Shown: positions 4,483 to 64,000 of the stretch, piece by piece
How the letters are laid out: each line of letters opens with the position of its first letter
How positions within the stretch are numbered: position 1 is the first letter of the stretch
Source: Podarcis bocagei
Taxonomy: Eukaryota
DNA: 64,000 bases
NCBI GenBank assembly: GCA_964188305.1
Contig: OZ076889.1
Reading direction: 5' to 3' (one strand)
Made by a program: the position numbers and the translations under genes
Notes under the pieces: model-generated
The model's database searches: none
Told to the model about the DNA's origin: nothing
What the model saw: the letters and a program-made list of their open reading frames with translations, nothing else

Positions 4483-4557
4483 TTATTTATTTCTGTACAC
4501 TACCTAGGTATTCCCTGAATGTTTATAAGTTCTGAAATAAGTAAAATGAATGAATGA

Positions 4558-5614
4558 GGCGTGCGTGCCAGGACTTAAAAAGCCAGAACCGGAGGCAGCG
4601 CTTCAGGGAATCATGCGGCTGCATGCCAGCAGTCAAGATGGCAGAAGCAGCAGCAGCACTGGCCCCGACGACATCCGTGGAAGTGCAGCTCCCAGTTCCC
4701 TGCCCTCACCTGGCTCAGAGCTTCTCCAGCAGGGTGGGCAAGTGGGACAAGGACCTGGTGGCCCCAGGGGACACCATCACCACTGACCCAGGATACATGA
4801 GAGGCCACGGAACATACCTGGGAGAAGATAAGCTCGTTGCCTCTGTGGCTGGTGTTGTGGACAGCGTGAACAAGCTGGTCTGTGTGAAAACTTTGAAAAC
4901 GAGATACAGTGGCAAAGTTAGTGATATTGTGGGACGAATCACAGAGGTTCAGCAGAAACAGTGGAAAGTCGAGACCAATTCCAGGCTAGATTCTGCCTTG
5001 CTCCATTCATCCATGAATCTTCCAGGAGGGGAGCTGAGGCAGAGATCAGTAGAGGATGAACTGGCAATGTGAGATTACCTGCAGGAAGGGGACCTTATCG
5101 GTGCAGAAGTCCAAGCGGTGTTCAAGGACCTTCTCAAGCCAGAGGTGATGGAGAAGATTGTGCTGAAGACGCGTCAGAGACTACTGGAACTGGAGGGGTG
5201 ATTGGAGAGGGAAAGTGGTGAGGCAGTGATGGTCCTTTCCTTTCAGGGATCTAGCCTCCCCAAGGTTCTTTTTTCCAGTGTGAGATTTCATTACAGATCC
5301 CATGCCGAATAGAAAAAGGGGGACTGTGGAAGCGATGAGAACTTTTGCTTTAATAATCTTGGTATCCTTTGTTATCCTGTGGCCCTCCCAATGAGGCTGG
5401 ACTACAGTTCACACACCCCCAACCACCAGCTGTACTACCTGCAGGGGCTGATAAGTTGGGTTGCAGCAGGATAGGAGTCCAACAGCTTCTCAATGGCTAC
5501 TGCTTTCTCAGCCCCTGACCTAGCACCACATTCCTCTACATGTAGTCAGCATTGTAAAAAGCATCTATGATACAGTGGATGCTTCAAGCTATGTGTGTGC
5601 ATGCAGGAGGAATT

Positions 5615-12260: not shown

Positions 12261-12906
12261 TGAAGCTCTAGTTAGATCTCGCCTAATCCTTAATCACCTT
12301 GATAAAATGGCAGTTACTGAAAAGGAGTTCCCCACCGTTAAAAAAAAAAAAGCTTTATGGTATTATGACGATAAGTTATTTCATTTAAGCAGTATTTCAT
12401 TAATACAGTTGGAATAACCATTTTAGAACTAATTACAATATTGATTAAAAGAATATAGCTCCCACTGTAGCTCCCACTGTAAAGGCTGCAGTGAATGTGA
12501 GATGAGTTTCAAACGTCTCCTCCAGTGAAGTGGACTTCCTCCTTCCACACCATCATGGGGAGGGGGATTTATCGGTTTTGGGTTTTATTTTGTGTTTTTA
12601 TATTGTATTTTTGTGTTGTGAACTGCCCTGAGATCTACAAATTCAATAGATAATAATGACATAAATTGATATATCATGCCCACTGTTGTGGATGGAACAC
12701 AGGGTATGCGCACATAGCAAATGTACAAAACTCCCAATAGTGTGAAAAGTCAGTTGTAATTCTACTTGCAGCTTATGATGGTAGAACTATTATTGGGTTG
12801 GCCAAAACCTGTATAGAATTAGCCTAACTCTGTTCAGGTGTATAGAAATATATACTACAGCCTCTCTCTCTCTCCCATGTTATTCCCCACTCTTAGTTTT
12901 TAAGTA

Positions 12907-13131
12907 CAGTGGTACCTCGGGTTACATACACTTCAGGTTACATACGCTTCAGGTTGCAGACTCCGCTAACCCAGAAATATTACCTCGGGTTAAGAACTGT
13001 GCTTCAGGATGAGAACAGAAATCGTGCTCCGGCGGCGCGGCAGCAGCAGGAGGCCCCATTGGCTAAAGTGGTGCTTCAGGTTAAGAACAGACCTCTGGAA
13101 TGAATTAAGTACTTAACCTGAGGTACCACTG
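12907..13131 (+). mobile_element. Tc1/mariner-pogo type MITE, copy 1
   Basis: TIRs cagtggtacctc(g/a)ggtta; TA TSD. Confidence 0.9.
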
Positions 13132-16100
13132 TACTGGGGCTTGAAGCATGCTTTGATAATCTTTTAGTGATCCTGGGAAGATCTTCTAGTCTTTGAAATG
13201 TGTATAAAACAGGCATGGTGAACCTGTCACACTCCAGTATAGTATTGTATTGCATTAGAATTGCATCAAAAAGCCAAGCTAGTGTGGCCAGAAGTCAGGA
13301 GAGATGGGAGCTATAGTTCAATAATCTGTGGAGGACCACAAGATCCTATGAAAAACAGGTTTGATTGGTCAGCACAAGCATGCTTTCTTTACAACAGCTC
13401 TGTCCTTGCTGAGGAACCACTGGGTTTCAGAAGCTGCACCAGCATCTTACAGTCAATACTAGGCAGTTTGCCACTCAAATAGTGTAACCCACAACTTACA
13501 TGGCTCAAAGACAAATGTATTTGGTTGGCAAACAGGTATAAATGCACTTTATGCTAATAACTGGGTCATGTTTTGTACTGACATAAAATAAAGCCAGTTA
13601 GTGCACCGCTCCAATGATACATTTGTTGTTCAACTCTATAATTCCTTCCTGCATTCAGGACTGAAGGTAATATACTTTGCAAACATGGTGGTTTAGTTTT
13701 TCCTTCAAGCAACCTGCTCTTTCAGCTGCTGAACTATTCACGTCAATAACAGTAAAGGTCCTGGGTGCTGTTCACCTTGTGTTGAAATGTTGCCAGCTCT
13801 AAGGGAATTATCAAGGGAGAGATACGGCATGTGCTGCGAGTGTCGTGAGCAGAAAATAGAACCATAGAATCATAGAATTGATAGAATGTTTGCTCTCTTG
13901 CCATACAAGCAACCAGTTACCTCTGCTTCAGTACCCTGACCTGGCCCAGCCACTCCCCCTGCACTCCTAACCGCACCCATCTCTGCGGACCACTACTGCC
14001 ACTGAGTCAGCATAGGCAGGAGCAAGGCTGATAGTGCGCTTATAGTTTCTGTTGTACTGTTTGGTTTCCATGATTACGCAGGCCTCAAGAGACAATCCTA
14101 TAAAATCTGCTTTTACTATGAGAACTTATTAGTTAAAGTGAACTAGAAGGGGGAAATGCACAATTTGGGGTGGTTTTTTGTGTGCAATTGGTTTATTTCA
14201 ATGATACAAACAAGTTAAGGGTAAATTAACTTAAGGAAGTTCACATAAGGGACTTATACTGCCAACCGATTCTTCTTGACACCCTAAAGCTTCTCTGGAA
14301 AGTTGAGGAGGCCTTTCTGAACCATGTGGTTACGGCGCAGGGGGCTGCTGAGGGAAGAGGGACCCCCCTAAAATGGGGTTCGACCTTAATATAACTCAAG
14401 GAAGTTTAAGGAAGCCAAGTTTCCCATTCCTTCCTCCTCCCCTCCAGCTGCCCCACCCCATTCCGCATTGTTCAGAAGGGACCCCTCACCCTTTCTGGAG
14501 AGTGCTTTCAGTGGTTGCAGTTGGCTGTGGGAGGGAGAATGAGACAGCAAACTTTCCTTCCATAAGCTTGCTTATGTTAAATATTTAGGTAGAGCTGTCA
14601 ACTTTGGATTTCAAAATTTTTGTCTTGAAGCAGTAATTGGAAGATTACGGCTGAACATCTGGCGGAATCCTGATTTCTCCAGGGATAAGACAATTACAAA
14701 AAATAAATAAAACTCCCATTAGCCTCTGCTGATAGCATGGCCAACAGTCAGGGATAATGGGAGTTGTAGTTAGAAAAGAACAGGTTGCCTAAGATGACTC
14801 AGTAGTGTTATGAGGGGAATATATTAAAGTTGAACATTATGAGAGACATTTAGGTCCATCATTGCTTTCATATGTTTCATGGAAGGGAAAGGAAACATAT
14901 TCATGGACTTAGCTCTGACACAAATACAGTAAAGATCTGTTTATTTATGGAGTATAGTTCAAATGTTCCTGCCTTCCACTGATTAACACTGGAGAATATA
15001 AAAGATGGGAAAGCAGAGGAAGAACAATAAAAAAGCCAAGTTTCCCAAAAGGCATTGCATATGCTGCTTCCCTAAACTCTTATTGGCATTCCAGAGGCCA
15101 TAAGAAGGTGTTCAATGACATGCGCTTGTTCGCTTTGCCTGCCCACACTCCTAATGAGCACCCTTGGGCATCCAATCTCCCTGCAATCTCCCTTTGTTCT
15201 TCCAAGGTCTTGTTCCTACCAAGCAAACTTGTTTGCATGAGGACTAAGAGCCCCAGTTACTATGGCGTGCTCTGTCATGTCTGGTCCTCACGTGGCACAT
15301 TAGCCCCATTGCATTTTCAACATTCCTGTTTAGTATGATTCATAAGTGCTTGTTTACCAGGATCAGCTGTTCTATGAAGATTTCAATGTTTCTTATTTGT
15401 CCTGATCCTACTTCCTCCACCATCATGAAGTACCGGTTCATAACTACAGCTGTCTCTAATGGTCAGGCCAGGCAAGATACAAATTATGGAGGGGATGCAC
15501 ACAGTTTCCAAGGCACCCCAGTCACAACGTACCTTCCAATTCTCAATCTCTTTCTCTTGCCTAGTTTTAACACATAGCAGATGAAATGGTAGACCAATGT
15601 CTCAGAATGCATGTTTAGGCTTACTAGGCAGAATGATCTCTCTCTTTCACTCACACATATATTCCTTCAGACTAGCATGTCATGGAGAAAGCTTAGAAAG
15701 AAACACCCTCACATACAACTAGTAAATAAAAGTGTGATATAGGGAAAAGGGATGAGGATAGATGGATATATAACTCTGGAGATCCAAAGTTCCCATCTTT
15801 TTTAAAAACAAAAAACCACACACCTGTACCCATGGGAGGGTATTTAATGTTGGGCTATTAGTATATGTCAGGACTTGTCCATTAATTTGATAAGGGTGAA
15901 AGAAGGTATTTTTAAAAGGAAGGTCAGATTGTTTTGTGTTACATAGCTATTTTACTTTAAACTAAACAAGGGGGGAAGTAGACAAGCTGCTACAGAAGGA
16001 AACAACCCAGAGGACTGAATTGTAGGGAGAACCTTGTGGGAATTGATCTGGTAGAAGGTTTTCTGCCGATCAGCAGAATTCTGTTATATAGATATTCTGA

Positions 16101-22340: not shown

Positions 22341-23610
22341 CTGCTGTTGGGAGCAGGAAGATGGGCACATAGTGTACAAGATGTCTCTATTTTTTTAAAA
22401 TGGCAAAGGCAGCCAACTATTAGTAAGAGGACAGAGTAGGCCTCACACTATGGTGCAATTACATTCTTGGGAAAAGCTGGGGAAGATATATTTCCAAAGT
22501 ATAAAATTCAGAGGTGATAAAAGTTAAACTATGCACATTGGAAACACTAACTTCATTTTCGTTGTTTTTATTAATTTGTTAAGAGGATTTGTAACCTAGT
22601 ACTTGAAGCCACTCGCTCTCTCCAAGGGGCTAATAAGGTAAAGAAAAAACAATAAAAACCAGAACAACAAATTCATGCAAGTATAAAACAGCATAAAATA
22701 GCAGCAGTAGTAGAAAGTTATGGCCAGATAAAATATTGCATAAAATGAAAATATATAAAATGCCTGGAAAAATAATGAGAGTTTTTGCCTGGCACTGAAA
22801 ATACATCAGAGTAAGCCATCCTATGGAGTGTATTCCAAAATTACAGTGCCAACTTCATTTAGTAAAGTAGGAAAAAGGCACCAATGAAATGAGAACAAAA
22901 AAGCTGGTAACCAAAATAATGCAACTTGTATTTAAAAAAAAGATGCTACAGCTTTTAGCCTCAGCTCTTTGTCAGGGGAATAATTTTTAAACAATGAAAG
23001 ACTTGCTTTCTAGGCATGTAAAAAGAGCACTCTTAACAGTACAATCTTCTGAAAATTACTTCTGAATAGACATGTATAGGATCACACTGTCAATCAGATG
23101 GAAGTTACCTCAGTAGTACATGCATACCTGGAAACTATTGAAAGGTGTGGTATAAATCCCTAAAAGAAATATATAAAACATTAAACTGCCAGAAGTTGGA
23201 TGTAACACATACCAAGTACCTAGAAATGGCAGCTGGAAAAAACTTTTACCAGTCTGGCTTATACAAGGGGGGAGGTAGGGAACCCGTAGCCCACCTGATG
23301 TTTCTGGACTACAAATCCCATCATCTGGCTAGGACTGAAGGGAGTTGGTTTCCCCTTTACCATATCATTGATAACTGGCATGGAATCAGAGCAAAATAGT
23401 GTTGTGCACCACCCCAGTCTCCAAACAGTGTAAGATTTCAGGGGTGCCAGGTTCTTTTGGGAATGAGGCAGAACAGAGACTGTGGTGTCTTTATGATATA
23501 TGGTTTCTTAACACATATATACAACCTGAGCCTAGGATGGAGGGGTTCACAGCATCAACACCCCAAAAGGGTCTTTTTTTCTCCCTTGGATTCAAACAGA
23601 AATCTCTGAC

Positions 23611-24285
23611 TAAAGGGAGATGGGAAAAGTTTCTCTCAATATTTTATTCTGTTGCTCTCAAATATTATCTACACATAATAAATTCCTGCACTCTGCTAGG
23701 AGGGTAAAAAGCAGTAGCTTGCAAAAGTCTAAAAACAGACAGGTCATGAGGCCGCTTTCTTAACAGACAGGTCATGAGGCCGCTTTCTGCCTAAACCAGC
23801 TACTTGAAACTGCTGATGCTAGCTACAGGTCAGAAGGTCGCTTCCTGCCCAGCCAGAAACTGCTGTTAACCAAAAAACCACAAGCAAGATGTTTCCTGCT
23901 TTACTTCTGCTTTTAAGTAATGCAAGATAAGAAGAAGATACGAAGGAAATGCTTTGCTAGCAAAAGAAGACACGTGTACAAGGAGGTGGGAGGGAGTGCT
24001 TGGCTTAGCAGAAAGACAGAAATGTTTAAGCAAGCAATAAAATGTGTTTAGCAAGCAAGTCTGCGGGTATAAGAAAGTCTGTTGAAGTGTCTTGCTTTAC
24101 AGCCAGTACATTTTTAGGAACTATCCAACAGGCTGTCTCTGAGTACAGACCTTAACTCTGTGCACAGAATTTCAATAAAACTCTTTTCTCCAAAGAAGAA
24201 ACTTTCCTGGAATTTTTTATTCTCTTCTCGGCCCTGGGGACGCGGGTAAGCAATTCTCTGGCAAAGTAAAAGGCATAAGCCTACA
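23611..24285 (+). repeat. ERV 5' LTR
   Basis: TAAAGG...CCTACA; TATA-like tataag ~24068; AATAAA 24174-24179; no difference from the 3' LTR found by eye. Confidence 0.97.
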
Positions 24286-24288
24286 GCT

Positions 24289-24306
24289 TGGTGCATTGGC
24301 CGGGAA
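24289..24306 (+). promoter_or_regulatory. Primer binding site, tRNA-Gly
   Basis: TGGTGCATTGGCCGGGAA is the exact complement of the 3' 18 nt of vertebrate tRNA-Gly(GCC), including CCA. Confidence 0.93.
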
Positions 24307-24514
24307 TTGCCCCACCCCAGGGGCCCCGGGGAGGGCCAGGCTCAACCAAGGTGAACAGCTCCGATCGGCGTTCGCATTTCCGGTGCACACCCTGCCAGTT
24401 TGTAGGGGGAGATTGCCACACCGTCCTGGAGCAGAGACATCTGGTTGAGGGAGAATAAGAGGACAGAACGGCGCCGAGGGGACAGGTCCGCAGCGGAAAA
24501 AGGTAAGCCCGAAG

Positions 24515-24575
24515 GAAAGGGCTAGGGGCCCGAGGGAAAGGGCTAGGGGCCCGAGGGAAAGGGCCAGAGGCCTGA
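24515..24575 (+). repeat. Three 21-bp G-rich tandem repeats in the ERV leader, just after the major splice donor (AG|GTAAGC, 24502/24503)
   Basis: gaaagggctaggggcccgagg twice, plus a variant third copy. Confidence 0.85.
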
Positions 24576-24856
24576 TCAGCCTCACCTGGTAGTTGGCAAT
24601 ACAGTGCCCGGCAGTAAGAATGCCACCAGGAAAGGAATTGGTAAAGGTTTGGGAAAGGGAATGGGGCAGAGGGAATTAAGTGTTTTGTTGATATGTTGTG
24701 TATCAGATACTCCAGTGGATGAATTGTTGAATGGGGCCAAGGCTTAGTGTCCCCTTGGCCGAGCGATTGTAGGGTTGTGCATTTTCTAACAAAATGTAGC
24801 ATGTGGAGTGTGAGAGAATTTTGAAAACCCAGTTAGGAGCGGTTGTATCTGAAAAA

Positions 24857-25870
24857 ATAGGGTCTAGAGCAAGCCAATGTATTCCTCTGAATGCTTTTTA
24901 AATAACTGGAAAACAGCCACGAAGAGTGATGATTTGGGGATTCAAATTGAAAAACAAAAAACAAAAAACAGAGACTCAAAACTTTATGTGAGGTGGACTT
25001 GCCAACCCAGGGAACTGCGTGGCTTTGATTTGCAATTAATCAACCTCCTGTGGCAAATCAACCCCCTGTGGCAAAATATATTAAATGTCCACCCAGACCA
25101 GATCCCCTATATCTCTACATGGAAGACCAATGTAAAAAAAAGAATCTACCATGGCTAAAGTCTTGCTGTGACAGCAACACACAGAACAGGATTTGTACAG
25201 TGAAGCCTTTGGTGTTAGAAGACCCAGAAGATGAGGAGAGGGGAGTGATTAAGCCACCACCTTACACTCCACCAACAGCCCCTCCAACCCCCCCCCAGGC
25301 CAAGATCAAGAAGCACAGGGAAGTGCTGGTGTAGGGGGAGGAGGACCTGCGAAGGAGGATAGTGAGACGGAAGAAGAGGAAGAATTTAGGAAGACACTAG
25401 ATGATATGAATCAAGGAAAGAAAATGTGGACAGAAAAACAGAAAAAGAGACTAAAGGAGTTTGCAAAGCCATTTGAGGGAGAAGTTGGATGTAAGCCCCT
25501 TGTTAGTTGAGGCAGCAGAATGCTGCACCCCTGAAAAGAGGAAGAGATGGCAACGTAAGTGGGGACAGGCGGCGAAGAGAGTTATGTCTCACAGACAGTA
25601 TGAGAAAACCAGGAAGGATCAGGCAGCCGGAGAAATGCCCCTTCAGAGGGTTTATGATCCACCAGCCCCTGTCCCAGCTGGACAAGCGGAGGCACAGTCC
25701 AGCATATACCCTTTTCAAGTGCAGATGTTTGTAATTGAAGAAATCAGAACCCCTCTTTTGAGGAGAATCCAGCAAAGATTGTAAAATTGTTTGAAGGGAT
25801 TTTTTTAAAACCTATAATCCCACTTATGATGATGAACAATATCCCCTGGACTCACTACTAACTACAGAAG
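24857..25870 (+). pseudogene. gag: ERV gag remnant (MA, PPPY late domain, N-terminal CA), frameshifted and truncated
   Basis: (ATA)GSRAS myristoylation-type start with ATG lost; HPDQIPYI..W matrix motif; PPPY at 25254-25265; NPTYDD...LLTTE capsid motif. Confidence 0.88.
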
Positions 25871-25871
25871 C

Positions 25872-28170
25872 ATTGCTTGGCCCCTGCATGAGTCAACTAG
25901 GGGAATAGAGAAGGATCCTTTTATATGGGACAGGGAACAGCAGCAGGCTTTTCAGGATCTCAAAGTGACATTAAACCCCAAGAAGCCTTTTACCCTGTTC
26001 ATAGATGAAGACCAGGGGGGTAGCCAAGGGAGTCTTATGCCAGAAACTGAAAAATTGGCAGCAACCCGTCGAATACTTGTCAGAGAAGCTAACCCCAACA
26101 GAACAGAGGTTGCCCCCCCCCCGTATGAGAGTGATTGTGGCAGTGGCCACCCTACTCACAAAGGCAGATAAATTCACGTTTGGACAGGACACTAGCTGTG
26201 TAACTCCAAGAGAAAGTGCCAGATGCTGTTATTACATTCACGCCTGAAGTTTCAGGTTGCCACAGCCCTTAGCCTAGCTACCTTATTACAGATAGGAGAA
26301 GGTGAACAAGGGAGCTGCCCACTCAGTCTTACCTGTGCCTGTAACAAAACCCACAAACCAAGTGGTTAATATAATTGGAGCCACAGGTAAATCACAAAAG
26401 GCCCCGTTTTTGCAGTCTGTTACCTGCTGCCTAAGTGGCCAAATAGTCCAGCACAATTTTTTTGTATATACCAGAGTGTCCCATTCCTGTATTGGGCCGA
26501 GACTTGTTAACAAAATTACAAGCCCAGATTTCCTTCCAACCAATGGGGGAAGTAATGATGACAACTGGACCAGCAGGAGAGTTTTCTTTAGAAATGCCCC
26601 TGTGAGACCATTGGTGCTTGATGATGGTAAAAGAAGAGGAGGGAATCCTCCCTGTTAGCCTGCTTCATGATGTTGACCCTAGACTATGGGCGGAAGATAA
26701 AAACCAATACCCCATCCCACGACAGGCAGCTGAAGGAGTGTGGGTGCATTTGAAGCGATTGCTTCAACATGGAATTTTGGAACAATGCCAATCACAGTGA
26801 AACACCCCACTGTTGCCAGTGAAGAAGGAAGGGTACTGCATATAGGCCCCAAAGTTCTGGAAAATAGGAAAGGAAGAACAGGACTTTGAAAAACCACTGA
26901 CCCAAGAAACAGGGTCTAATGTTCATGTTGCCCTTGGCTTTGCTTAGAGTTTGTAGCCTCCCATTGAAACGTATTCACTTGTCATCCTTTTGAAGTGATG
27001 TTTGGAAGACCGGTTCCTTATGTGTGCATGCTTTCACCTATCCCTGCTCAAGATGTGGAATTGAACAATTATGTACAGTCTCTCTCTCGAGATTCTCTCT
27101 CTCAACCCAGGCCCGAACTCCTTGCGTGACCAGTTTGAGCCAGGTGACGAGGTGTGGATAAGACTGGTCCCAGGCACCACTGCAGCCGTGCTGGAAGGGC
27201 CCATCTGCTCTCCACACCCACAGCTGTGAAAATCGCTGGCACCACCCCTTGGGTCCACCACATTCAAGGAAGAAAGCTGCTTCAGATTGGACTGTGTCTC
27301 AGCATCCTGAAGATCCCCTCCAGTGACGACTGCCTTGCTGATATCACTCCAGAGGCTGATATCTCTACCCACGGTGAAGAATTGGATGGGAGGGGCGCCC
27401 GCAGGCAGCGCCCCCAACGTAGACATTTGTTCTCCAGCCAATTTAGAGGCACCACCAGAACTTTTGATATTGGTACCGGAACTCACTCCAGACGATGTGG
27501 AACCACGTTACACCCTTGATGAACAGCAGTGGACCAGCCAAGAAGGAGCAACGCTCCAGGAAGGACCAGACAGCCGTGTTTTTGTGCCCCAACATCTGGC
27601 CAGCACAATTGTAAAGAATTACCACGAGTCCACCCATTTGGGAGGCCCAGCTGCTAAAGCACACCTTGGGAGAATATTCTACCTCAACTAACTGCTGCTA
27701 TATCCCAAAATGTGCCCTGTGCGCCAACCAAGAGACTGAGAACTATCACCCTTTGGACTTCTATATGGCAGGCCAACCCCTTTCATCCGAGGCATCCCCG
27801 CCAGTTTGGGGCAGATGGGAGATCACATCACCCAAGAACAAGTGCAATCCCTGTGTTTGTTGTGTGTGTTTGCTTTCTTTCCAGGTATTCCCTCGAGCGT
27901 ACACCTGCAGTCCCGCGGCAGTCTCGCTGAGCCGGTTCACCAGTTCCTCTGAGTGACAGCGTCTGGCGACCCCCTCATCCCCAACTGCAGTGAAAGTAGT
28001 CGAGGTGATCCCCTGGGTACATCACACGCATCTGAAGGAGGGTGTCTGGACTTGCAAAAGAAATCCTGCTGACCCTCTGAAGTTGATCATCACCTTGTGT
28101 CTGACGCTACCAGGAAAAAAAGCGTTAGGCCACGGGCAACGCGATCCTGCGACTAATCATCACAAGGACA
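25872..28170 (+). pseudogene. pol: ERV pro/pol remnants in scrambled order
   Basis: RT connection (KPFTLFIDE, GVAKGVLCQ, PVEYLSEKL) precedes protease (NKGAAHSVL, IIGATG, LGRDLL-like), then RT N-terminus (QYPI, NTPLLPVKK), IN C-terminus (FEVMFGRP, TPTAVK..PWVHH), IN N-terminus (YHESTHLG..CALC) and a second IN C-terminus; no YxDD core seen. Confidence 0.88.
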
Positions 28171-28220
28171 GTTACAAAGACTTTCTCTTTTCTCTCTTAT
28201 TTTCTTTATTGACCTGCTCT

Positions 28221-28628
28221 ATGTCTTATTGCCCTGACCCTACCGAACCATACCAACCCTATTGGCCTGCTGGCCTCTGCTACGACTGGTTCGTCTTGCC
28301 GGTGGTAAGAGATGGCGTGCTCCTTGGCTATTGGAAACTGGGGTTTGATGAGATTACCGTATTGAGACACCCCACTACCCCGTTGTGGCTCCTCTCCCAC
28401 ACCACTGACCAGCACGCGTGGACAGTGCTCTTACGGGAAGCTGCAGAGACGATCGAAATCTATCTAGTTCTGGACCGCTCTTGCTGTTGTGGGAGGGTAG
28501 TCAACTGTTATCTGGAAGGTAGAGCACTGTACCAACCTCATTTGATAGACCAGGTCCTACTCTTAACCCAGGTCATAGATGGGACAGAACCTATCTTAAT
28601 GCAAGTATTGCAGGGGTGGGAGCCTTAG
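28221..28628 (+). CDS. Unrecognised 135-aa ORF at the env position (within a 212-codon open frame from 27990)
   Basis: First ATG downstream of the strong acceptor at 27884; preceded in frame by signal-peptide-like KDFLFSLLFSLLTCS; no env hallmark recognised. Confidence 0.35.
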   Translation: MSYCPDPTEPYQPYWPAGLCYDWFVLPVVRDGVLLGYWKLGFDEITVLRHPTTPLWLLSHTTDQHAWTVLLREAAETIEIYLVLDRSCCCGRVVNCYLEGRALYQPHLIDQVLLLTQVIDGTEPILMQVLQGWEP

Positions 28629-28854
28629 CCAGGTGTGCATTGAAATTACTAAACAAGTGCCAGTAAGAATTGCCACCCCAGGATTTCAGCTTCCATATGC
28701 TCTGGTCACTAGGGAGGCAGCACGTGAGTTCAATCCACCCAACAGGGCTAATAGAAAAATTGACCCACATAGTGGGAGCATCAACTCACCGGTGGGCTCT
28801 CATCCTTGAGGCTCAACAGGTAGTCGGGCACAAATATCAGTGGGCTCTTCAACA

Positions 28855-29127
28855 ATGAGCACACCCCCTGAATATTGGTGGGAGGAACCATGGAGATATT
28901 GGGTTTGGTGGATAGGAGTGATATGTACCGCCCTTGTCATATGGATGCTCTCGTATTTCTGTTGGCATGAACGGTATCGTATTTGTGGGAAGAATAGGCC
29001 CAATAATGCTTCTATTGCTTTTCTGCTTCTGTATACCCTGCTTAATGCAATGCCTGCAACATATGATGGGAAAGATGATGCCTCGCATGATGGGACCTCG
29101 CGTGATTGCTGTGCTGAGAGAATATAG
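28855..29127 (+). CDS. Putative 90-aa Trp-rich membrane protein, or env membrane-anchor remnant
   Basis: MSTPPEYWWEEPWRYWVWWIGVICTALVIWMLSYFCWHERYR; its ATG overlaps the upstream TGA (ATGA); A at -3. Confidence 0.35.
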   Translation: MSTPPEYWWEEPWRYWVWWIGVICTALVIWMLSYFCWHERYRICGKNRPNNASIAFLLLYTLLNAMPATYDGKDDASHDGTSRDCCAERI

Positions 29128-29155
29128 ACCCCTACCCCAGAACGAATCTAAGTAA
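28967..29155 (+). pseudogene. env: env TM anchor and cytoplasmic tail remnant
   Basis: GPIMLLLLFCFCIPCLMQCL anchor and YRPL (YxxL) motif, ending just before the PPT. Confidence 0.7.
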
Positions 29156-29165
29156 TAGATTGTTC

Positions 29166-29182
29166 AAAAGAAGAGGACGGAG
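29166..29182 (+). promoter_or_regulatory. Polypurine tract
   Basis: aaaagaagaggacggag abuts the 3' LTR. Confidence 0.85.
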
Positions 29183-29857
29183 TAAAGGGAGATGGGAAAA
29201 GTTTCTCTCAATATTTTATTCTGTTGCTCTCAAATATTATCTACACATAATAAATTCCTGCACTCTGCTAGGAGGGTAAAAAGCAGTAGCTTGCAAAAGT
29301 CTAAAAACAGACAGGTCATGAGGCCGCTTTCTTAACAGACAGGTCATGAGGCCGCTTTCTGCCTAAACCAGCTACTTGAAACTGCTGATGCTAGCTACAG
29401 GTCAGAAGGTCGCTTCCTGCCCAGCCAGAAACTGCTGTTAACCAAAAAACCACAAGCAAGATGTTTCCTGCTTTACTTCTGCTTTTAAGTAATGCAAGAT
29501 AAGAAGAAGATACGAAGGAAATGCTTTGCTAGCAAAAGAAGACACGTGTACAAGGAGGTGGGAGGGAGTGCTTGGCTTAGCAGAAAGACAGAAATGTTTA
29601 AGCAAGCAATAAAATGTGTTTAGCAAGCAAGTCTGCGGGTATAAGAAAGTCTGTTGAAGTGTCTTGCTTTACAGCCAGTACATTTTTAGGAACTATCCAA
29701 CAGGCTGTCTCTGAGTACAGACCTTAACTCTGTGCACAGAATTTCAATAAAACTCTTTTCTCCAAAGAAGAAACTTTCCTGGAATTTTTTATTCTCTTCT
29801 CGGCCCTGGGGACGCGGGTAAGCAATTCTCTGGCAAAGTAAAAGGCATAAGCCTACA
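29183..29857 (+). repeat. ERV 3' LTR
   Basis: 675 bp, offset 5572 bp from the 5' LTR, followed by TSD TGAC. Confidence 0.97.
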
Positions 29858-30790
29858 TGACGACCATCTGCTTGCTGTTTTGCATCTAGTTCACACCACA
29901 GCAATCTCTGCTCTCAAACTCAGGCTTTGTCCCCCACTAAGAGCTGTAGGGCCCCCTGCCCCACCCAGCCGTTGTATGGCAGAGAACCCCCTTTCTGTTG
30001 CTCTCTTAATGGCCCATCACCTTTCCTTTGATTTCTTAATGGCCCATCACCTGGGTGATTACCTCATCAGGATGCTAGCCTGGCTTGATTAGCTTTTAAC
30101 ACTTGCTAGGATTATAGGGGTCTGGCACTCATAACACTAGGTTGGAAAGTAGCCCCACCCAGGGCCCTGAAACTGGAACGGTTTAATTTGCTTAGATGAT
30201 ACGTCAATGGCTCATCCTAAAAGCTGATCCAGTAAAAAGATAATCTTTTCCTATTCTGACTCCCCTTTTGTAATATTTACTGCAACGCCCTGTTCATTTT
30301 GTCGGCAAGAGTCTCATGTAACTCAAGTTTATTCTACTTTGCTGAGATGTCTCTCCCTCATTCTTCACGATGGGTGGGGCTGGGCTTGTGTGTGTGGGAT
30401 CAATATTTCAGTTATGTTCTATATAGACAATAATTCTCTATGACAACCTGCAGCTGAAATGAATGCTGGGAAATCATAAAGAGCGTGGAGAACATCTAAG
30501 GGAATTGGGAATTCTAAGGAATTGGCAGGGCGGAGAAGCCCAACAGCGAGAAAACAAAGAAGTTTTAGTTTACCAGAAAATGTCACAATAAACTAATGGA
30601 GGATAGGTTCATCAACAACTATTAGCTGCAATTGCCAAGTTGAACCTCCATGTTCAGAAGCAGTTTGCTAGTACGAGCTCCCTGAAGGCAAAATCATGGG
30701 TGAAATAAATGGATCTTCCATTTGATCCAGCAGGATTCTTCTCATGTTCCTATGTTTTTCAAATAACCTCTTAATAATCTGTTAAAAGTA

Positions 30791-39260: not shown

Positions 39261-39737
39261 CAGTGCTGGATTTAGGGGGTGCTGGCAGTCCCCCCCACAG
39301 GGTGCCAAGCTGAGGGGGTGCATAATAATACAGTGGTACCTCGGGTTACATACGCTTCAGGTTACATACACTTCAGGTTACAGACGCTGCTAACCCAGAA
39401 ACAGTGCTTCAGGTTAAGAACTTTGCTTCAGGATGAGAACAGAACTTGTGCTCCGGCGGCGTGGCGGCAGCAGGAGGCCCCATTGGCTAAAGTGGTGCTT
39501 CAGGTTAAGAATAGTTTCAGGTTAAGAACAGACCTCCGGAACGAATTAAGTACTTAACCCGAGGTACCACTGTAATCATCATCATAATCATCATCAATAT
39601 TTATATGAGTACCTACTGAGGAAATCCATTAAAAAGCAACTGTACCAGAAAGGAATGATTGTGAAAATAAGAAATACTTAGGGAGGGGGTGCCAAATTTT
39701 GTCCTCAGGGCACCATATTACCAAAGTCCACCCCTGG
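39261..39737. mobile_element. Degenerate hAT-like element hosting a MITE
   Basis: cagtgctggattt ... aaagtccacccctg termini. Confidence 0.45.
39331..39572 (+). mobile_element. Tc1/mariner-pogo type MITE, copy 2
   Basis: TIRs cagtggtacctcgggtta; TA TSD. Confidence 0.9.
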
Positions 39738-44997: not shown

Positions 44998-46693
44998 GTT
45001 CAGGGAAACCCAGATTGGGCACCCCAGAAGTTGGGAGACTCACATAACTCTCAATTGACTCACTTCCTCTTTACCTGGACATCATAACTGCAACCCCACT
45101 GCAATAGTTCTCCCTCTTCCACACTCATTCTTCACAAACATTCCTTCTCTCTCAAGCAAATATTATTTCTGGACAAATACAGTGTGAATCAGCCCCTTTT
45201 GTTTTGCAGGCCTAGCTTGTCAGGCTGCTGTTTAATGACCCTCGTGCTGTGTACTGTAGGCTGTTCATTAACCTCTAGCCACAGATGGTGAGGAGCTGGC
45301 ACTGAGCCACTGGGAACAGTTTGCCAGCGCTAACCAGGAGCTGCCAGTGACCTTTACACGGGGATGACTATGCCTACCACAGGGAATCAAGGAGATGGAG
45401 AATTTGGTGTGACCATTTAAGGAATGCCTCCTCCTAATAGGGGTAGTGTCAGGGCCTAAGTGGACTTGTGCCTTTGCTTTTAAGGTGCAGGTTTTTAGAA
45501 ATGAAAATAGCACCAGCTTAACAGAGTGGATAATTTTTTTTATTGCAGCCGGCTTGAAGAGGCTATCTTCCTCACTTGCTGCAGCCTTTCTCTGAAGCCA
45601 CTATTTGCACCAGGCCTCTCCATGTCTGCTGCAATTCCAGAAACTCCCCCAGGCTAATGCAATCGGTGTTTCTAAAACTCTGCAATCCTGATAATCATCA
45701 CCCACCCCATGATGCAATTTGCATTTTAAGAAACATTAAATGCCAATATGCTTTTAGCATTAACCACATCCAAACCATACATTTAAAGCACATGACCTCT
45801 CTGCAAGAATTTTGGGAACTAGATTCTTCCTCATAAATCCACAGTCCCCATGATTCTTTGGAGAAAGTAATGTGCTTTAAATGTAAGCTGGATGTGCTTT
45901 AAATGTATGGTGTGGATCTGCCAATCATACCTAGTTTGGCCCTTGGCATCTTAATATTATGCTATTGCAATGTATATAGCAGAGGTATTAAAACCATGAC
46001 CCATGCGCTACATATGTTCTTTGTAGGCCAAGCCATACATCTGCATCATGTAAATGGATTCCACACAAAATTATTCCCTACACATGCAGTGCTGGTGATG
46101 ACAGGTGCAGCAGCAAAGGACTCAGGTGTGAAATGTTATTTTGATAGCCCTCTGAACTCTCCACCCAGGTAATGGAATCAAACAAATTGGTTATTAATTA
46201 GTAGAGGGGATTAAATAATGACTGCTGCCGTGAGTCACAAGAGAGTACACAGACACACAAGGAGTGTCATTCAGTAAACACACTTGGGGAAACCTAATGG
46301 TAATACACACGCATATACTTGAGTCATAGCAGAATCACGATCGTTTACCTGGGGTGCAATATATGTGGAACTGGGAAAGAGACAAAGAGTATATGTTCCT
46401 TCCTCACTACCACATGAGAGCATTATTTTGGTTTCTCAGCCTCTGGTGCTGTTCATCTTAAAGCATTATTTTGTTAATTACAAAAGCTTCCACAACATTA
46501 TAGGCATGTCCAGCAAGTTTACCATTGTGTGGTACTTCCCAAATATTTGAATTTGGACCCACCTATAGACATCATCTTCCCTCTGAGCCTTGCCCCCCAC
46601 AACATTTGGTAGGCAGCCATGTATTTAGTGTGTGATCACACAAAATCTTCACACACTAGTCACTGTTGCTGGGTGTAAGAATCTGATGACTGG

Positions 46694-47490
46694 TAAATGT
46701 TGGAAATGCAAAGAAACTGAAGGTACATTCTTTCACCTTTGGTGGACGTGCCCAAGGATTAAGGCTTTCTGGGAGATGATCTATAATGAAATGAAAAAGG
46801 TATTTAAATATGCCTTCCTGAAGAAACCAGAGGCCTTTCTCCTGGGCATTGTTGGCCAATTGGTGCCAAAGAAGGATAGAATTTTATTTATGCATGCCAC
46901 AACAGCAGCAAGAATTCTCATTGCAAAGTATTGGAAGACACAAGATCTACCCACCCTGGAAGAATGGCAGATGAAGGTGATGGACTATATGGAACTGGCG
47001 GAAAGGACTGGCAGAATCTGAGACCAGGGAGAAGAGTCCGTGGAAGAAGATTGGAAGAAATTTAAAGACTATTTACAGAAATATTGTAAAATTAATGAAT
47101 GTTAGAATGATGTTAGAATGAAATTAAGTGGTTCTAGCAGCAATGTCATAAAGGTGTATGAAAAAATGGCCGGTTAATAGGTGAGAATCTAAAGTTATAA
47201 AATATTAAGTTAAAGGACTAAGACAAAAACAAAGAGGGAAAGGAATTGCTGAATTAACCAATTGAACTGGAATACAAAAAAGGGAGGTGAGAGGAGGTCA
47301 GGGAAGCAAGGAAATGAAATGTAAGATACAGAAGGATTAATCTGTTTTTAAGTGTTTTTTCTAAAAAAAAAATCTATATTTTGTATTTTGTATGTTTTTC
47401 TTTTTTTCTATATTTTCCCTTGTCTCTTATTTTTAACTATGCAATTTTTAGTTTCTGAAATTTTAATAAATATCATTCAAAAAAAAAAAA
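46694..47490 (+). mobile_element. 5'-truncated L1-clade LINE (ORF2 CCHC C-terminus, 3'UTR, poly(A))
   Basis: CWKC..EGTFFHLWWTC zinc knuckle; AATAAA and A tail; 17-bp TSD aagaatctga(t/a)gactgg at 46677-46693 and 47491-47507. Confidence 0.9.
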
Positions 47491-49210
47491 AAGAATCTGA
47501 AGACTGGGGCGCTAAATCAATACTGGCATTAGAAGACTGCTAAAACAGACTTCCTCTTTAAGCCAGCCTCTGAAGGAGACAGAAGCGGAAAGGAGCTGCT
47601 GTAGCCAAATATATTTGGCCTGACATTGTGCAACTTCCATGATAACAGCAATTTTATTGGCTGTAACCGTAAAGCTCTACTGCTGAGAAAGGAGAGCTTT
47701 GCCTGCTGCAGGCTCTTCTGCCTCCCTTGAGCTTCAAACCCATCCTTGAATCCACTCCTCGCAGTGTCCCATGCAACAGTCCGGGAATTATTTAAATGCT
47801 TTATATATGGGAGAGGAGCTTTATTTATTTATTTAAATTTATACACTGCTCGATTGGGGGGAAAAATCCTCAAAGCAGTTTAAAAAAGATAAAATGGTAG
47901 AATTAAGAAAAAATGTACACCCTTACTTTAAAACATCCAAAAGTTAAAATACTAAACAGATTAAAATTACCTTAGACTTTAGTCTAATTCCAGACATAGG
48001 CAAGATGCCTAAACCTAAAACATCCCCTACAGATGCTTACATAAGTTTAACTTATTAAGATGATCCTATCTAAGCATTCTTATGAAGAAGAAATCTTACT
48101 GAAGTTAAGGAGACTTAGTCCATAGTTTATACTTAGGACTGAGATGTAAAACTGCTGCTATTATATGTTCCTACATTGCCTTGAAAAACACTTATTCTCC
48201 ACTTTTCCCCTTTGTGGGTTCTTATACTCTAGGGCTATATAGTGCTGTTGATACATTGCTTTTCTGCGCACAGCTGATGGAATTAAATGGGGTTCTATAT
48301 GGCATCTAATAGAGTACTATTTCCTTATAAAACCCAGCAATGTCAGTCCTAACGGGCAAGTTCCTTCTAAATGTGCACTTTGATATGTCCCACTACAGCA
48401 AAGTCTGTCTTCTCCTTACTACTGCCTCTTTAATTAGTAGCTTCTCTATTTTCTCTTTCTTTTAAAGTGGCTTCTGCCCCTTTAATTAGATGTTTCAAGA
48501 GTACAGTGGAGTAGCTTTAATCACTGGATATCTCTTTGCAGTCAGAGCAATTGCTTGCTTGCTTGCTTGCTTATTTATTTATTTATTTTATTAGGCACAT
48601 TTTTGCAATTTCACTCTTAAAAATAAAATGAATTAGAACAATCACGCATATTTGCAAACAGGAAACCAGTCATTAATACACACACTCCATGGAGAAGGAG
48701 CCAACTAATTACAGCCAGTCCAGGGATGCCATGGGCACAGAAGTGAAGGAACTAATTACAGGGGCACTAGCAGCTTTAAATGAAAGAGGCAAGGATGAAG
48801 CTAGCACAAATCATTTATGAAAAAAGGCAGGAAAACAAGATAAAATATTAGAATGTGGTAGGCTGGCAGTGATGTCTGGATTCTCTGTAAAAATGGTGAG
48901 TGAATGAATGCTGTATTATTGTCGGTATCATTTCGTATCACCTAATAACAATAGGAATGCTATTAGAACCAAATAAACAGGCATTCATTTCAGAAGCAAA
49001 TAAGCTTGTGCTTTTGACATGCATACCTAGTTCTTAGGATTGTTTAATTGTTCAGAACAATAGTCAAGCAGTTGTACAGAGGCAGAAAGCTGGCCAGAGA
49101 TATGAGTGCTCCCGGGGCATAATCGCTTGTGTGCTTGGGGGTGGGGGTTCCTCTTCTCCCTAAATGGTGTTCCTGTTTGGCTGGTTTGCTTGAGCGATTT
49201 GAAGCACATA

Positions 49211-49433
49211 CAGTGGCACCTCAGGTTAAGTACTTAATTCATTCCAGAGGTCCGTACTTAACCTGAAACTGTTCTTAACCTGAAGCACCACTTTAGCTAA
49301 TGGGGCTTCCTGCTGCCACGCCGCCGGAACCCGATTTCTGTTCTTATCCTGAAGCAAAGTTCTTAACCTGAAGCACTATTTCTGGGTTAGCGGAGTCTGT
49401 AACCTGAAGCGTATGTAACCCAAGGCACCACTA
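49211..49433 (-). mobile_element. Tc1/mariner-pogo type MITE, copy 3 (inverted)
   Basis: Reverse complement of the 12907/39331/55813 family; TA TSD. Confidence 0.88.
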
Positions 49434-50120
49434 TACAGGCGAAGGATGCCATTTCACTCATGGTGAGCCATTCCTAACTTATATTTGAGGTTGAAGAGGC
49501 TGGGTTTTGTTCATTCCAGCTGCAATGATTATATTATTCTTTGAAGTTGCAGACCTATCCCACTTACCTGGGAGGAAGCCTCACTGAAATCAATGGGACT
49601 TGATTCTGAGTAGGCATGTATAGGAAGTTTTTTAAAAAAACCCAACCCCAACACTTTCCCTTATTATTTTCCTCCTCAAGCTACACGTGTCCTTTTACCT
49701 TTTGCCATACATCACCCAGAGTCTGTGTGTGTTGCTGTCTTCTGAATTGTCTTCAGTTAGTATGTCTTCTCTTTAAAAGCAATTTCAAAACGTGCTGCAG
49801 CAGTAAAGGTCAAATTTATACACCACATCCTCACCTCTCCCAGTGCATATATTGCCCTATCCCAGCTGAGCTGTCCTTAAGCCTTTCTATTTATGCTTGC
49901 TGAGAAAAAGCCCTCTTGGCAACAATTAAACTGGAATAAGTTACACCAGTGTAAAGGACAAAAAAAAAAACACAACCCCAGGGAATGTTATGGGCAGAGA
50001 ATTGGCATGTTGGGGCTGGAAGGGATAGTGGGGCAAGAAAGTGAGTAGACAGAAGGTCCCCCCCAGAGAAGTTTCCCCCACCCCAAACACACACACTGAG
50101 GACACCTAGCCCAAGAGACC

Positions 50121-55560: not shown

Positions 55561-55812
55561 CTTTTCCCTTGGGGCTCCGGAACTCCAGAGCTACCATAGG
55601 AAAAAGTCCACGCCAAAACATCATGAAAAACATATATTTGTCGAAATGTAACGCTATCTCAATACTATTCCAGAAATATTGTTCCATTCATAATGCAACA
55701 ATTCAGGCTGAAGATTGAACTCCCGAATTCCAACTAAGGCTGCCGTCTCAGCCCCACATGCTTGGGAGTAAGCTCCATTGAGTTTAGGAGGACTTCTGTC
55801 TGGGTAGACATA

Positions 55813-56054
55813 CAGTGGTACCTCGGGTTACATACGCTTCAGGTTACATACACTTCAGGTTACAGACTCCGCTAACCCAAAAATATTACCTCAGGTTAAG
55901 AACTTTGCTTCAGGATGAGAACAGAAATCGTGCTCTGATGGTGCAGCGGCAGCAGGAGGCCCCATTAGCTAAAGTGGTGCTTCAGGTTAAGAACACTTTC
56001 AGGTTAAGAACGGACCTCCGGAACGAATTAAGTACTTAACCTGAGGTACCACTG
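55813..56054 (+). mobile_element. Tc1/mariner-pogo type MITE, copy 4 (DMAP1 intron 1)
   Basis: TIRs and TA TSD; nested in an older palindromic repeat. Confidence 0.9.
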
Positions 56055-57534
56055 TAGTTAGGATTGCACTTGACGTTCTTATCAGGGAGCAGCGGGGTGA
56101 TCTAAACTGCAGCCAGGCAGTAGTGGGAGAGGACAGATGGGCAGAGACACTGCCTCCTCTGCAGCCCTGTTGTTCACAGTTGCTTGGGCAGAAGGCAAGA
56201 GGGCAGGCAGAAACCTGCTTTGGGAACTGCTATAGTTTTCAGGTCCGATGCCATCAAGTGACTGCAGGAGTGGACAAAGCAGCAAATAAAGTCCATGTTA
56301 TTGTGTGGGATATCTTTAGGCTCATTTTTAATAACAGGGATTAAGGTTTGTGCACGTATATTTCAGTGGCCCACTTTGCACATCTCATTATACCATAGCT
56401 TACAGCAAGTAATGGGCAGCATTCTGGTGCAAATGGACAAAAGTTCCCACAGCACTCCTACCCCATTCCTACCAGTGCTGTGCTGTGGATATGGCTCTAC
56501 ACAAAGCATGAGTGTACCTAAGATTTGTTGTGGTCACCCACTCATGTTTCGTTTGGAGAGCAACAAGCCACGAACCCAGGTTTGGATCACATAACTAGCC
56601 AGACCGTGACTTGTTTTGTCTGCAGTGCAGCAGGAACAGAGTAGGAATGCTGTGAGAATGTTTGAGCACTTGAAATGGATGTAGCCAGGATTTTTGTGGT
56701 GGGAGCAGGCCTCAGCTATGTATTTTTTTTGATTTAGAGGGGGCAGCTGCCCCCCTTGGTTACGCCCATGGCATTTGTTCACTTTAAACTATAGTTTGTT
56801 TTAAACTATGGTTTAATGTGACAAGCAAACCAGGCCAGTATCCCCTTCCCAATGCTTGTCTACCTCCATATTTTAGAATAGTTGTTTATAAACAGAATTT
56901 TATAAACAGAATTGTTTGTTATGATTTCTTAGTCAGCTTCTTTTTCTATTTTATGTCGCGTCTGGGCCTGGATACCATTATATAATGGACAGTGGATGCA
57001 AAGGAGCGCTTTTATTTAACTCTTGCTAATCAAGTTTGACACCAGGCATGTGTGTAGTCTACTAAAATTTCTAAATTTTGGTTTGGCTAGATTACATAGA
57101 TGTGACTATGTTTATTTTTTTTCCTGCTTCAGAGATTCAGGTTTTCAAATAATTTGTCTGCTTCTTTTGACATAGACTCTTAGGAGGGAATGGGAAGAAG
57201 ATTGATTTGTAGATAGACTTGTAGTGATAGAGATAGCGAGGAGCAACCATAGTAGACACAGACACATAGCTGACACGAAACGTCCATCCCCTAGGGGCAG
57301 TCTAGAAACCATGTTCTAGGATTCTAAGTCTTTATCAGATGCTGCCTGTGCTTTTCACATAATGTCAAATATCAGGTTCTGCAGTTTGGTGGAAAACACA
57401 TGGGTGCATGGAATAAACAAAGCTCTGGTCATTAGTCCCATGGGTATAAAAGTTTCATGTGCCTGCCAAGACTGTTGCAGGTGCTTGTATTTTCTGTAAG
57501 TTAACTGTATGGAGAAGAGAAAATTAATTCCTAA

Positions 57535-60540: not shown

Positions 60541-61466
60541 GTATGAAGGATTGATCAGAGCTTGTATTAAGTATGAAGGCTTGAACAGAGCTTGTGAAAT
60601 GGGAGTGAGTGGATAAATTTGTGCCAAAGTATCTCAAAGGACATCTCCAAATACCCTCTTTCTTTCACTTGCTATCTCTAGGGTTAATTCCCATATCAAC
60701 TTCAGAAGTGTAAGACTGATTCTGGTATCACAGGACATTAAACTCTGCAGTATTCTTTAACTTTTTTTAAATACTTGAGTCCTGTGGGGTGTGTGCTACT
60801 TATCAGCGTCCACACTGAAAGTCCTGATTTGGAAGGCATCTAAGTAACATTGGGTAGTGCCTCAAAGCCACAAATTAAAGTTAGCATGAAAAGGTCACAA
60901 AAAGTTAGCTACTTTTCACTTAGGAGCGTGCAGGTGTGAACACACACACAAACACACAAAATTATGTGAGGTCAGATTGGCAGATGAACATCTGTGGCTG
61001 TTCATATCTTTAGTCTAAGGAGATAGCATTCAGTAAAGGTGCAATTGCCCCCAAGATTGAGGGGGCCCGCCATGTGTGACATCACATGCAATGTTGCATC
61101 GTCTGGAGGAGACCAAGTGCTCTGAAGGAACCGGCCACTAAAGCTGCGCCACATTTGGCTGTGTGCTCAGCCTCCTCTGCCCCGTAAACATTGGGGGCCC
61201 AGCACTGAGTAACAGATAAAACGAATGGATGGAACTAGCGGCCCCCATTTTATCATTTGGGTGGCAGCAAAGATGGGATGTGGGAAATAAAGCTTACATT
61301 TTGAAGTTACTTGTGATTGGGGCATAGAAGAGGGCAACTGGATTTCTTTCCTGTGAAATCATGGGTTTGTTTTACCTCAAAGTAATCCTGCTAGAGGAAA
61401 CAATCCTGCATGAGGGGGAGCATGTTGTGCCAGCCGTCTCATTCAGTCTGTTCTTTCCTTCTGCAG

Positions 61467-61625
61467 ACAGTGCAAATTCCAATTTACTCAGAACAGGAGT
61501 ATCAGATGTACCTTCATGATGATGCTTGGACCAAAGCTGAAACCGACCACCTCTTTGACTTATCCAGATGGTTCGATCTTCGCTTTGTGGTCATTCATGA
61601 CCGTTATGACCACCAGCAATTCAAA
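61467..61625 (+). CDS. DMAP1: DMAP1 coding exon 4 (start of SANT/Myb-like domain)
   Basis: TVQIPIYSEQEY...WTKAETDHLFDLSRWFDLRFVVIHDRYDHQQFK; 159 nt. Confidence 0.96.
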
Positions 61626-62289
61626 GTAAGTGCCTGTCAGCTAATACCGTCTACAGTAAAGTTGCCATGGTGCAGTTTGTTGAATAAAACTTATTTCCAG
61701 TTTAAGGATCTGCAGACATGGACAATGCAGTGTGCAGGTTAAAATAATACATGCCTGTTAAGGGTTCCTGAATTCTCTTCCTGAAGTTTTGTGTGAAATA
61801 TTATAAGCACCAGCTGTGTTGGGTAAGAGACTTACAAAAGCAAGGAAAAGCTGGGTTGTTAAGCTCTGAGAGGCATCTCAACAGTGTGTATTTGAAGGTG
61901 GGATGGCTAGGACAGAATAGGGATTCTGTTGGTGTACTACCCACCCTGTCACTCAACAGTCTCATTTCTAGCAGGGGTACTCTTGGTGTTGGACTCCTCT
62001 CAGCTTGTTGTGCTGGAGAACTTCAACATTTATGCTGATGCCTTGTCAGGACTGGCTCAGGTTTTCATGGCTGCCATGACAACCATGAGTCTGTCCTAAG
62101 TAATCTGGCCCTACCCATGCTGCAGGACACATTCTGGACTTGGTTTTCTGTGCTGGATTGAATTATGGTGATCTTAGCGTGGAGGACAGTGTTAGTTCCA
62201 CTGTCATGGACTTGCTGGAGCTCATAATCTTAGTGGGTGTCTGGGTGTGATTAAGATAGTCCACCCTAGGAGGCAAGGTATCTGGAGTG

Positions 62290-63543: not shown

Positions 63544-63711
63544 AAGCGGTCAGTGGAAGATTTAAAGGAGCGCTACTATCACATCTGTGCCAAGCTGGCC
63601 AACATCCGTGCTACCCCAGGCACTGACTTGAAAATCCCTGTTTTTGATGCTGGCCATGAAAGGCGCCGGAAAGAACAGCTAGAGAGGCTATATAATCGGA
63701 CACCAGAGCAG
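63544..63711 (+). CDS. DMAP1: DMAP1 coding exon 5; gene continues beyond the window
   Basis: KRSVEDLKERYYHICAKLAN...HERRRKEQLERLYNRTPEQ; 168 nt. Confidence 0.96.
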
Positions 63712-64000
63712 GTAATGTCAGGAAATGTTGCAAGGCAGCCTGGCCTCACATTATCTTACACTGGATCTGTAGCAATAGCTCATCATTTCTGGGTACTCCC
63801 CAGTGCCCTTCAGGGCTGCTAATGTGACTCCTGTTGGAGGTAGCAGTAGGTGCACCTCCCATCCTTTAAGCGTGATTTATCAAGTAATGGGCATACACAT
63901 ATTAGGTGATCAATGTGAATAAAGGAATAACTACTAGAAAACAAAGTGTGTTAAAATACGTTTTATTTGAGTTTTGTCTGAGAAGGATAGAAGCGTAGTG

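Follow-up and report, generated by a model that had tools for sequence, protein, structure and literature searches.

A probable helper-dependent recombinant endogenous retrovirus of Podarcis bocagei with identical long terminal repeats and a candidate reading frame in the env position

Several non-autonomous endogenous retroviruses (ERVs) serve here for comparison. Among the VL30 proviruses of the mouse, 42 of 86 carry identical long terminal repeats (LTRs), LTR length ranges from 436 to 681 bp, and the primer-binding site (PBS) is of the tRNA-Gly type in 57 of the 86 (PMC4859993). In recKoRV (PMC6112702), the cattle ERVK[2-1-LTR] D-type elements and ETn/MusD (PMC10924933), young ends surround an older segment in elements that arose by recombination and are mobilised in trans; such parasites of parasites may contribute to bringing ERV invasions to a close (PMC10924933). 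Here we describe a single locus comparable to these systems, an element at positions 23611-29857 of a 64-kb stretch of DNA from the lizard Podarcis bocagei (contig OZ076889.1; hereafter the window). It is probably a helper-dependent recombinant class I (gamma-like) ERV, recently inserted by the enzymes of another element and working like VL30, recKoRV or the cattle D-type elements.

The ends of the element point to a young insertion. Aligned with each other, the LTRs agree at 675 of 675 positions and cease to match exactly at both termini, as expected from a preliminary description of the locus, which had judged them identical by eye. Among lengths from 3 to 8, the flanks match at 4 only, giving a target-site duplication (TSD) with a chance probability of about 0.004. 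The TSD, the 18-nt PBS and the polypurine tract (PPT) had also been called intact, and all three are indeed present, but the left terminus is the non-canonical TA in both LTRs (the right one is the canonical CA) and the PPT includes one C. The U3 region of the 5' LTR contains a perfect 28-bp tandem duplication (23734-23788), and TATAA and AATAAA signals lie at 24068 and 24174. The PBS is putatively of the tRNA-Gly type, with a presumed match at 18 of 18 positions; ARAGORN found no tRNA gene in the window, which also gave no Rfam match. The 30 nt preceding each LTR (23581-23610 and 29153-29182) share a short AT-rich likeness that 1.6% of flank windows equal in score, and which is probably due to chance.

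LTR identity sets only an upper bound on the age of the insertion, about 0.5-2.2 Myr (million years): zero differences correspond to 95% upper limits of 0.49, 1.0 or 2.2 Myr at 4.5, 2.2 or 1 x 10^-9 substitutions per site per year, rates that are assumed values, not measured in this host. An active pair of parasite and helper in this lizard, as proposed in the preliminary description, does not follow from an identity that allows for so long a time. The attribution of such a pair to lizards is in line with the closest named relatives, which among the matches listed belong to lacertid (Podarcis, Zootoca) gamma-like families, although this falls short of proof.

In contrast to the ends, the interior is heavily damaged. 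A search from a related protein gave 357 relatives, of which 120 were listed; 123 proteins were mapped on the window with tblastn, and a frameshift-aware comparison then defined the blocks. The references named below include LOC114584662 (P0026) and A0A670ILY5 (P0004) of Podarcis muralis and a protein of P. raffonei (P0029). Against P0026, the four blocks of a first family (family A) show 70-81% identity, 16 frameshifts and 4 stops; three further frameshifts and one further stop appear in the upper gag against P0034, and the blocks of a second family (family B) have six frameshifts against P0004, for about 25 frameshifts and at least 5 stops in the whole gag-pol. Only 763 of the 1517 P0026 residues are represented, and the positions of the reverse transcriptase (RT) YxDD motif, RNase H and the integrase core fall in gaps. 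The gag remnant is interrupted by frameshifts and stops, its remaining capsid (CA) and nucleocapsid (NC) parts are missing, and the point at which four named squamate Gags begin has no ATG; the frameshifts, stops, large deletions and lost Gag start reported earlier are thus all borne out. Since only 4 of 24 tested frameshifts (25 were mapped and one omitted) lie near homopolymers, against 6% of background positions, most of them are not read errors.

The damage is not confined to small lesions. The surviving blocks stand in the order gag, RT connection, protease with RT start, and integrase tail, with the RT thumb and connection preceding the protease. Neighbouring blocks overlap by 8-15 bases in the protein-based maps, where alignment ends are fuzzy. 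At the second junction (26302-26311), where the RT-connection and protease blocks meet, the letters NKG can be read, as had been noted before and ascribed to a decayed protease active site; the N and K, however, come from the upstream block in another frame, and the protease frame starts at the Gly. To judge from these frames, NKG is a rearrangement junction cutting the protease catalytic motif rather than point decay. Within the displaced RT block, positions 25860-26012 are slightly closer to P0099 (40/51) than to P0026 (35/51), and this segment may come from a third, related donor. Searches against solved structures (PDB) matched interior pieces to murine leukaemia virus (MLV) RT, the protease of xenotropic MLV-related virus (XMRV) and p30 capsid, with 0 matches for the third frame; Gag_MA and MLVIN_C gave weak Pfam matches below the cut-off, and none of the three minus-strand frames of the interior yielded a Pfam family.

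A second retroviral family follows downstream. One integrase stretch is present twice, the first copy matching P0026 at 28/35 and P0004 at 16/32 residues, and the second matching them at 16/35 and 26/37, respectively; the two tails are 65% identical over 121 aligned bases. In a tree of 22 rows and 41 columns (built with 20 of 21 references picked from the 120 listed relatives), copy A falls in a clade with P0026, P0027, P0029 and P0034 (support 96/90) and copy B outside it. In the family B integrase the catalytic core is deleted between the N-terminal region and the tail. Open pol frames survive in related families of lacertid genomes, as in P0004, with 15 members in its 90% cluster. At the switch between the families, the first ATG after the family A pol opens a chimeric frame of about 100 codons (27386-27691) that runs in frame over the switch into the family B integrase N-terminus.

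The two families also differ in their nucleotide composition. Family A is as depleted in CpG as the host flanks (ratio 0.16-0.19 against 0.20-0.22), and 28 of 567 C residues in family A are in CpG, compared with 50 of 449 in family B plus the 3' region (Fisher p=3e-4). As erosion is deeper in A than in B, family A looks like a long-resident fossil and family B like a younger one. On both strands, CpG sites show an excess of differences from the references. Beyond this signal, G-to-A differences outnumber C-to-T ones by 33 to 9 over 24860-27372 (p=6e-4; 20 to 8 with a second reference), an asymmetry for which repeated reverse transcription or a tolerance for changes of this type may be responsible. 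APOBEC-type hypermutation was considered: the G-to-A excess is present, but without downstream context, and the direction of change is not polarised. Taken together, block order and family membership show that pieces of two gamma-like families were recombined and rearranged in the interior, which is not the product of simple decay. The class I (gamma-like) assignment agrees with the MLV-type Gag/Pol relatives and the 4-bp TSD, though not with the left LTR dinucleotide. The features of the element are collected in Table 1.

Table 1. Mapped and predicted features of the P. bocagei element (window coordinates)
Feature	Position	Strand	Basis or closest match
Left TSD, TGAC	23607-23610	+	LTR/TSD comparison
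5' LTR, 675 bp, start TA, end CA	23611-24285	+	LTR comparison
PBS, 18 nt	24289-24306	+	begins TGG, 3 nt past 5' LTR
Predicted splice donor	24503-24508	+	donor-like site
Family A gag remnant: matrix (MA), p12-like region, CA start	24860-25869	+	70% to P0026 residues 6-181 (25352-25869)
Family A RT thumb/connection block	25860-26309	+	77-79% to P0026 749-925 / P0029 424-600
Family A protease and RT N-terminus, stopping short of YxDD region	26302-26849	+	76-79% to P0026 340-545 / P0029 15-220
Family A integrase C-terminal part, reaching pol end	26835-27372	+	81% to P0026 1313-1516; 54% to P0004
Stub past family A pol, with the first ATG downstream of acceptor 27110 followed by the A-to-B switch	27386-27451	+	inference; switch point approximate
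Family B integrase N-terminal (HHCC-type) region	27452-27725	+	69% to P0001, 55% to P0004, 37% to P0026
Family B integrase C-terminal part (second integrase tail)	27712-28094	+	66% to P0004 1025-1167, 44% to P0026
ORF135, 135 codons	28221-28628	+	no frameshift; no signal peptide or transmembrane segment; no known family
ORF90, possible small single-pass membrane protein	28855-29127	+	hydropathy
Overlapping frame with hydrophobic anchor and short tail	28922-29155	+	hydropathy
PPT, purine-rich with one C	29166-29182	+	adjoins 3' LTR
3' LTR, same sequence as 5' LTR	29183-29857	+	LTR comparison
Right TSD, TGAC	29858-29861	+	LTR/TSD comparison

Self-copying is out of the question for an element that is devoid of the RT, RNase H and integrase cores; mobilisation in trans, the route taken by VL30, is most likely. 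With some 30 lesions in the interior and none in a 675-base LTR, the lesions must predate the insertion. In this core logic, with decay before insertion and probable copying by a helper, the preliminary description stands. In the proposed scenario, an old, CpG-eroded family A locus would have been transcribed and co-packaged with family B RNA, and template switches in reverse transcription would have deleted, reordered and joined the pieces. The product, having kept LTR, PBS, leader and PPT, would then have been packaged, reverse-transcribed and integrated by a helper Gag-Pol, which would leave two identical LTRs. The leader donor at 24503 would splice to a family B acceptor at 27884, so that an open reading frame of 135 codons (ORF135) would be expressed from the mRNA normally making Env. 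The earlier label of a VL30/ETn-like element holds for the way it works, but as a two-family rearranged recombinant it resembles recKoRV, ETn and the D-type elements of cattle more than a provirus that has merely decayed.

A swap in genomic DNA would account equally well for the contrast between young ends and old middle: a young provirus would have integrated in the normal way and later exchanged its middle, by ectopic recombination or conversion, for that of an old defective locus, so that the old interior did not go through reverse transcription at this insertion. Meiotic recombination is a possible route for recKoRV (PMC6112702), and in the present element the A core is poorer in CpG than the parts near the ends. 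Yet the five junctions (near 25865, 26305, 26840, 27375-27450 and 27720), of which one runs backwards, and the presence of two families would require a donor that was already scrambled, most easily made by reverse transcription, and the 3' family B integrase is broken too; such a swap is therefore considered unlikely. Gene conversion between LTRs is also known to occur, and an old provirus decayed in place could have lost its LTR differences in this way, with the 30 nt before the LTRs slightly more alike than chance would have it (a post hoc observation). The conversion must, however, span all 675 bases to the very ends, next to a TSD that is still perfect, and in-place decay neither reorders pol nor adds a second family. 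Reverse transcription from one template gives both LTRs the same terminus, and the odd left end shared by both thus fits one-template copying better than conversion reaching the very edge. The conversion scenario is slightly less probable than the swap. Least probable of the three, by a small margin, is an assembly artefact, with LTR copies polished to one sequence or the mosaic arising from a repeat misjoin: the share of frameshifts near homopolymers is somewhat above background, but the window is without any N, the TSD matches on both sides, and the pieces are short and, like the two integrase tails, too divergent for assembler confusion. LINE (long interspersed element)-mediated retroposition was rejected in view of two complete LTRs, a TSD of 4 bp and the lack of a poly(A).

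Several observations nevertheless weigh against mobilisation of this recombinant by a helper. A non-canonical left end should lower integration efficiency. The closest open gag-pol frames, among the matches listed, are only 55-81% identical, and no helper was identified among them. No further pieces of the element were detected elsewhere in the window, which leaves one locus only. Folding of the leader is not unusual in four 200-nt windows (z between -1.2 and +0.5), and a packaging signal is not demonstrated. Acceptor-like sites, four in 5.8 kb of the element against 0.76 per kb in the flanks, are not enriched, and the tree, with its 41 columns, leaves copy B's own place unsettled.

Block order, the second family and ORF135 are additions to the preliminary description, which had called the interior dead; this is true of the broken gag-pol, but ORF135 is nearly intact. 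It occupies the env slot, and its ATG is the first after acceptor 27884 and hence the first in the predicted spliced mRNA. No ATG occurs in 24090-24520, and a 21-bp tandem repeat in three copies (24507-24572) follows the donor. The acceptor-like sites at 27110 and 27884 occupy almost matching positions in the two integrase tails, and both fall in ATG-free stretches (315 and 406 nt) that rank among the three longest in the interior. Directly upstream of acceptor 27884, a GT/pyrimidine-rich insertion relative to P0004 is found at 27860-27874. The 223-codon stop-to-stop frame at 27957-28628 is not regarded as a single protein, because integrase tail makes up its first third and the ORF135 homologues start at ATG 28221.

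Five unnamed homologues of ORF135 were found, four with 78%, 57%, 50% and 38% identity and one a deleted copy, all 91-147 aa long and with a Met near the same place. A profile search of 1.84 billion proteins returned 4 matches, all within that length range; none is long, so ORF135 is not part of a known Env or Pol. The deleted one, P0125, comes from a further copy of the 3' region that bears a separate deletion, and related 3' regions thus exist elsewhere. ORF135 has no hydrophobic segment (maximum KD19 1.32) and does not continue into a long frame for Env surface and transmembrane subunits (SU-TM). Family searches gave one Pfam match at noise level (E 0.09), no usable Atlas match and a best PDB profile match at E 1.3, and AlphaFold2 on three sequences gave no usable model (pLDDT 38.5).

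Comparison of the homologues gives modest signs that ORF135 is under constraint. For the three distant homologues, a neutral model puts the chance of an open frame at 0.015-0.024. Three of four homologues show more conservative changes than expected (z 1.9-2.4; P0126 reaches z 0.4-0.6), and W, C, H and Y residues are retained at P 0.01-0.02 in two of four. In one shared stretch, mean BLOSUM is +0.8 for the 5 changes in the ORF frame and -1.7 for the 6 in a shifted frame. By a hand estimate, the six frameshifts in about 640 bp of family B predict about 4 in the 405 bp of ORF135, where 0 are seen. On the other side, the homologues came to light only by being open frames, and the counts are low. 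The copy in the window stops five codons short of its closest homologue, P0125 lacks two thirds of the frame, and a younger donor may simply have supplied the segment.

The gamma-like retroviral group is regarded as having simple genomes. It is tempting to speculate that ORF135 represents an undescribed accessory-gene family of a squamate gamma-like lineage, translated from a spliced env-type mRNA and kept nearly intact by a helper-dependent recombinant that lost every enzyme, because the protein aids the spread of the element itself, for example in RNA export or in countering host defence; the parasite may then still move in lacertids. We put this forward tentatively, as a proposal with less in its favour than against it.

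Two more frames lie downstream. For ORF90, the top Atlas matches are influenza M2/NB at 0.80-0.81, a level that shuffled proteins reach one-third of the time, and they serve as no more than a weak lead. The overlapping frame with an anchor and tail may resemble the C-terminus of the Env transmembrane subunit; Pfam and the other searches made gave no significant match for it and one weak result. Elsewhere in the window, an intronless EXOSC2/RRP4-like sequence with an in-frame stop (4554-5300) is probably a processed pseudogene, and DMAP1-like exons with a SANT domain (61395-61739 and 63544-63819) lie on the + strand about 31 kb downstream of the provirus. Four copies of a repeat of about 250 bp with similar inverted ends (12904-13150, 39328-39574, 49209-49436 and 55810-56056) are likely a non-autonomous DNA transposon, and the open frames at 947-1528 and 46629-47018 presumably resemble the 3' ends of LINE reverse transcriptases.

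The worked cases compared here come from mouse, koala and cattle, and a lizard case with five mapped junctions provides markers by which the spread of a single recombinant master copy could be traced. The backward jump in pol and the cross-family switch are a record of how such elements form, and ORF135 may be a new retroviral accessory protein. If that reading is true, the parasite supplies a protein and not cis signals alone; if the element is single-copy and ORF135 silent, it is an ordinary young defective ERV. In the titles and abstract openings of the open-access literature, no report of such a lacertid element or of ORF135 was found, and Repbase/Dfam, subscription journals or supplements could hold the family; retroviral transcripts were excluded in PMC9723728.

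Set against known systems, the lizard element shares with VL30 (PMC4859993) the lack of autonomy, stop-rich gag/pol remnants, near-identical LTRs and a 4-bp TSD, and its LTR falls in the length range of that group. VL30 PBSs are mostly of the tRNA-Gly type, which is the putative type of the lizard PBS as well. The differences are the host and lineage, the reordered two-family pol and the retained candidate ORF; the PPT is also unlike the VL30 consensus quoted in PMC4859993. This consensus and the lacertid closest relatives set the element apart, and it is not a VL30 member. The lacertid ERV1 Gag-Pol proteins P0026 and P0029 (70-81% to family A pieces) and P0004 (55-66% to family B) have the same MLV-type MA, p30 and integrase C-terminal domains, but their frames are long, open and in normal order, and none is near enough to be a direct parent. 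CrocERV31 (PMC4299795), also from a reptile, likewise has an ORF other than env in the place of that gene; that ORF is a captured host gene, nectin3, whereas ORF135 matches no host or Pfam family. Like recKoRV, the lizard element unites segments of two distinct retroviral families in one provirus, yet the ends of recKoRV, the cattle D-type elements and ETn are traceable to a known competent helper (PMC6112702, PMC10924933), while here both interior families are broken and the blocks permuted. Sequence comparison thus suggests a known kind of parasite, in which the permuted two-family interior and the unassigned ORF appear to be new.

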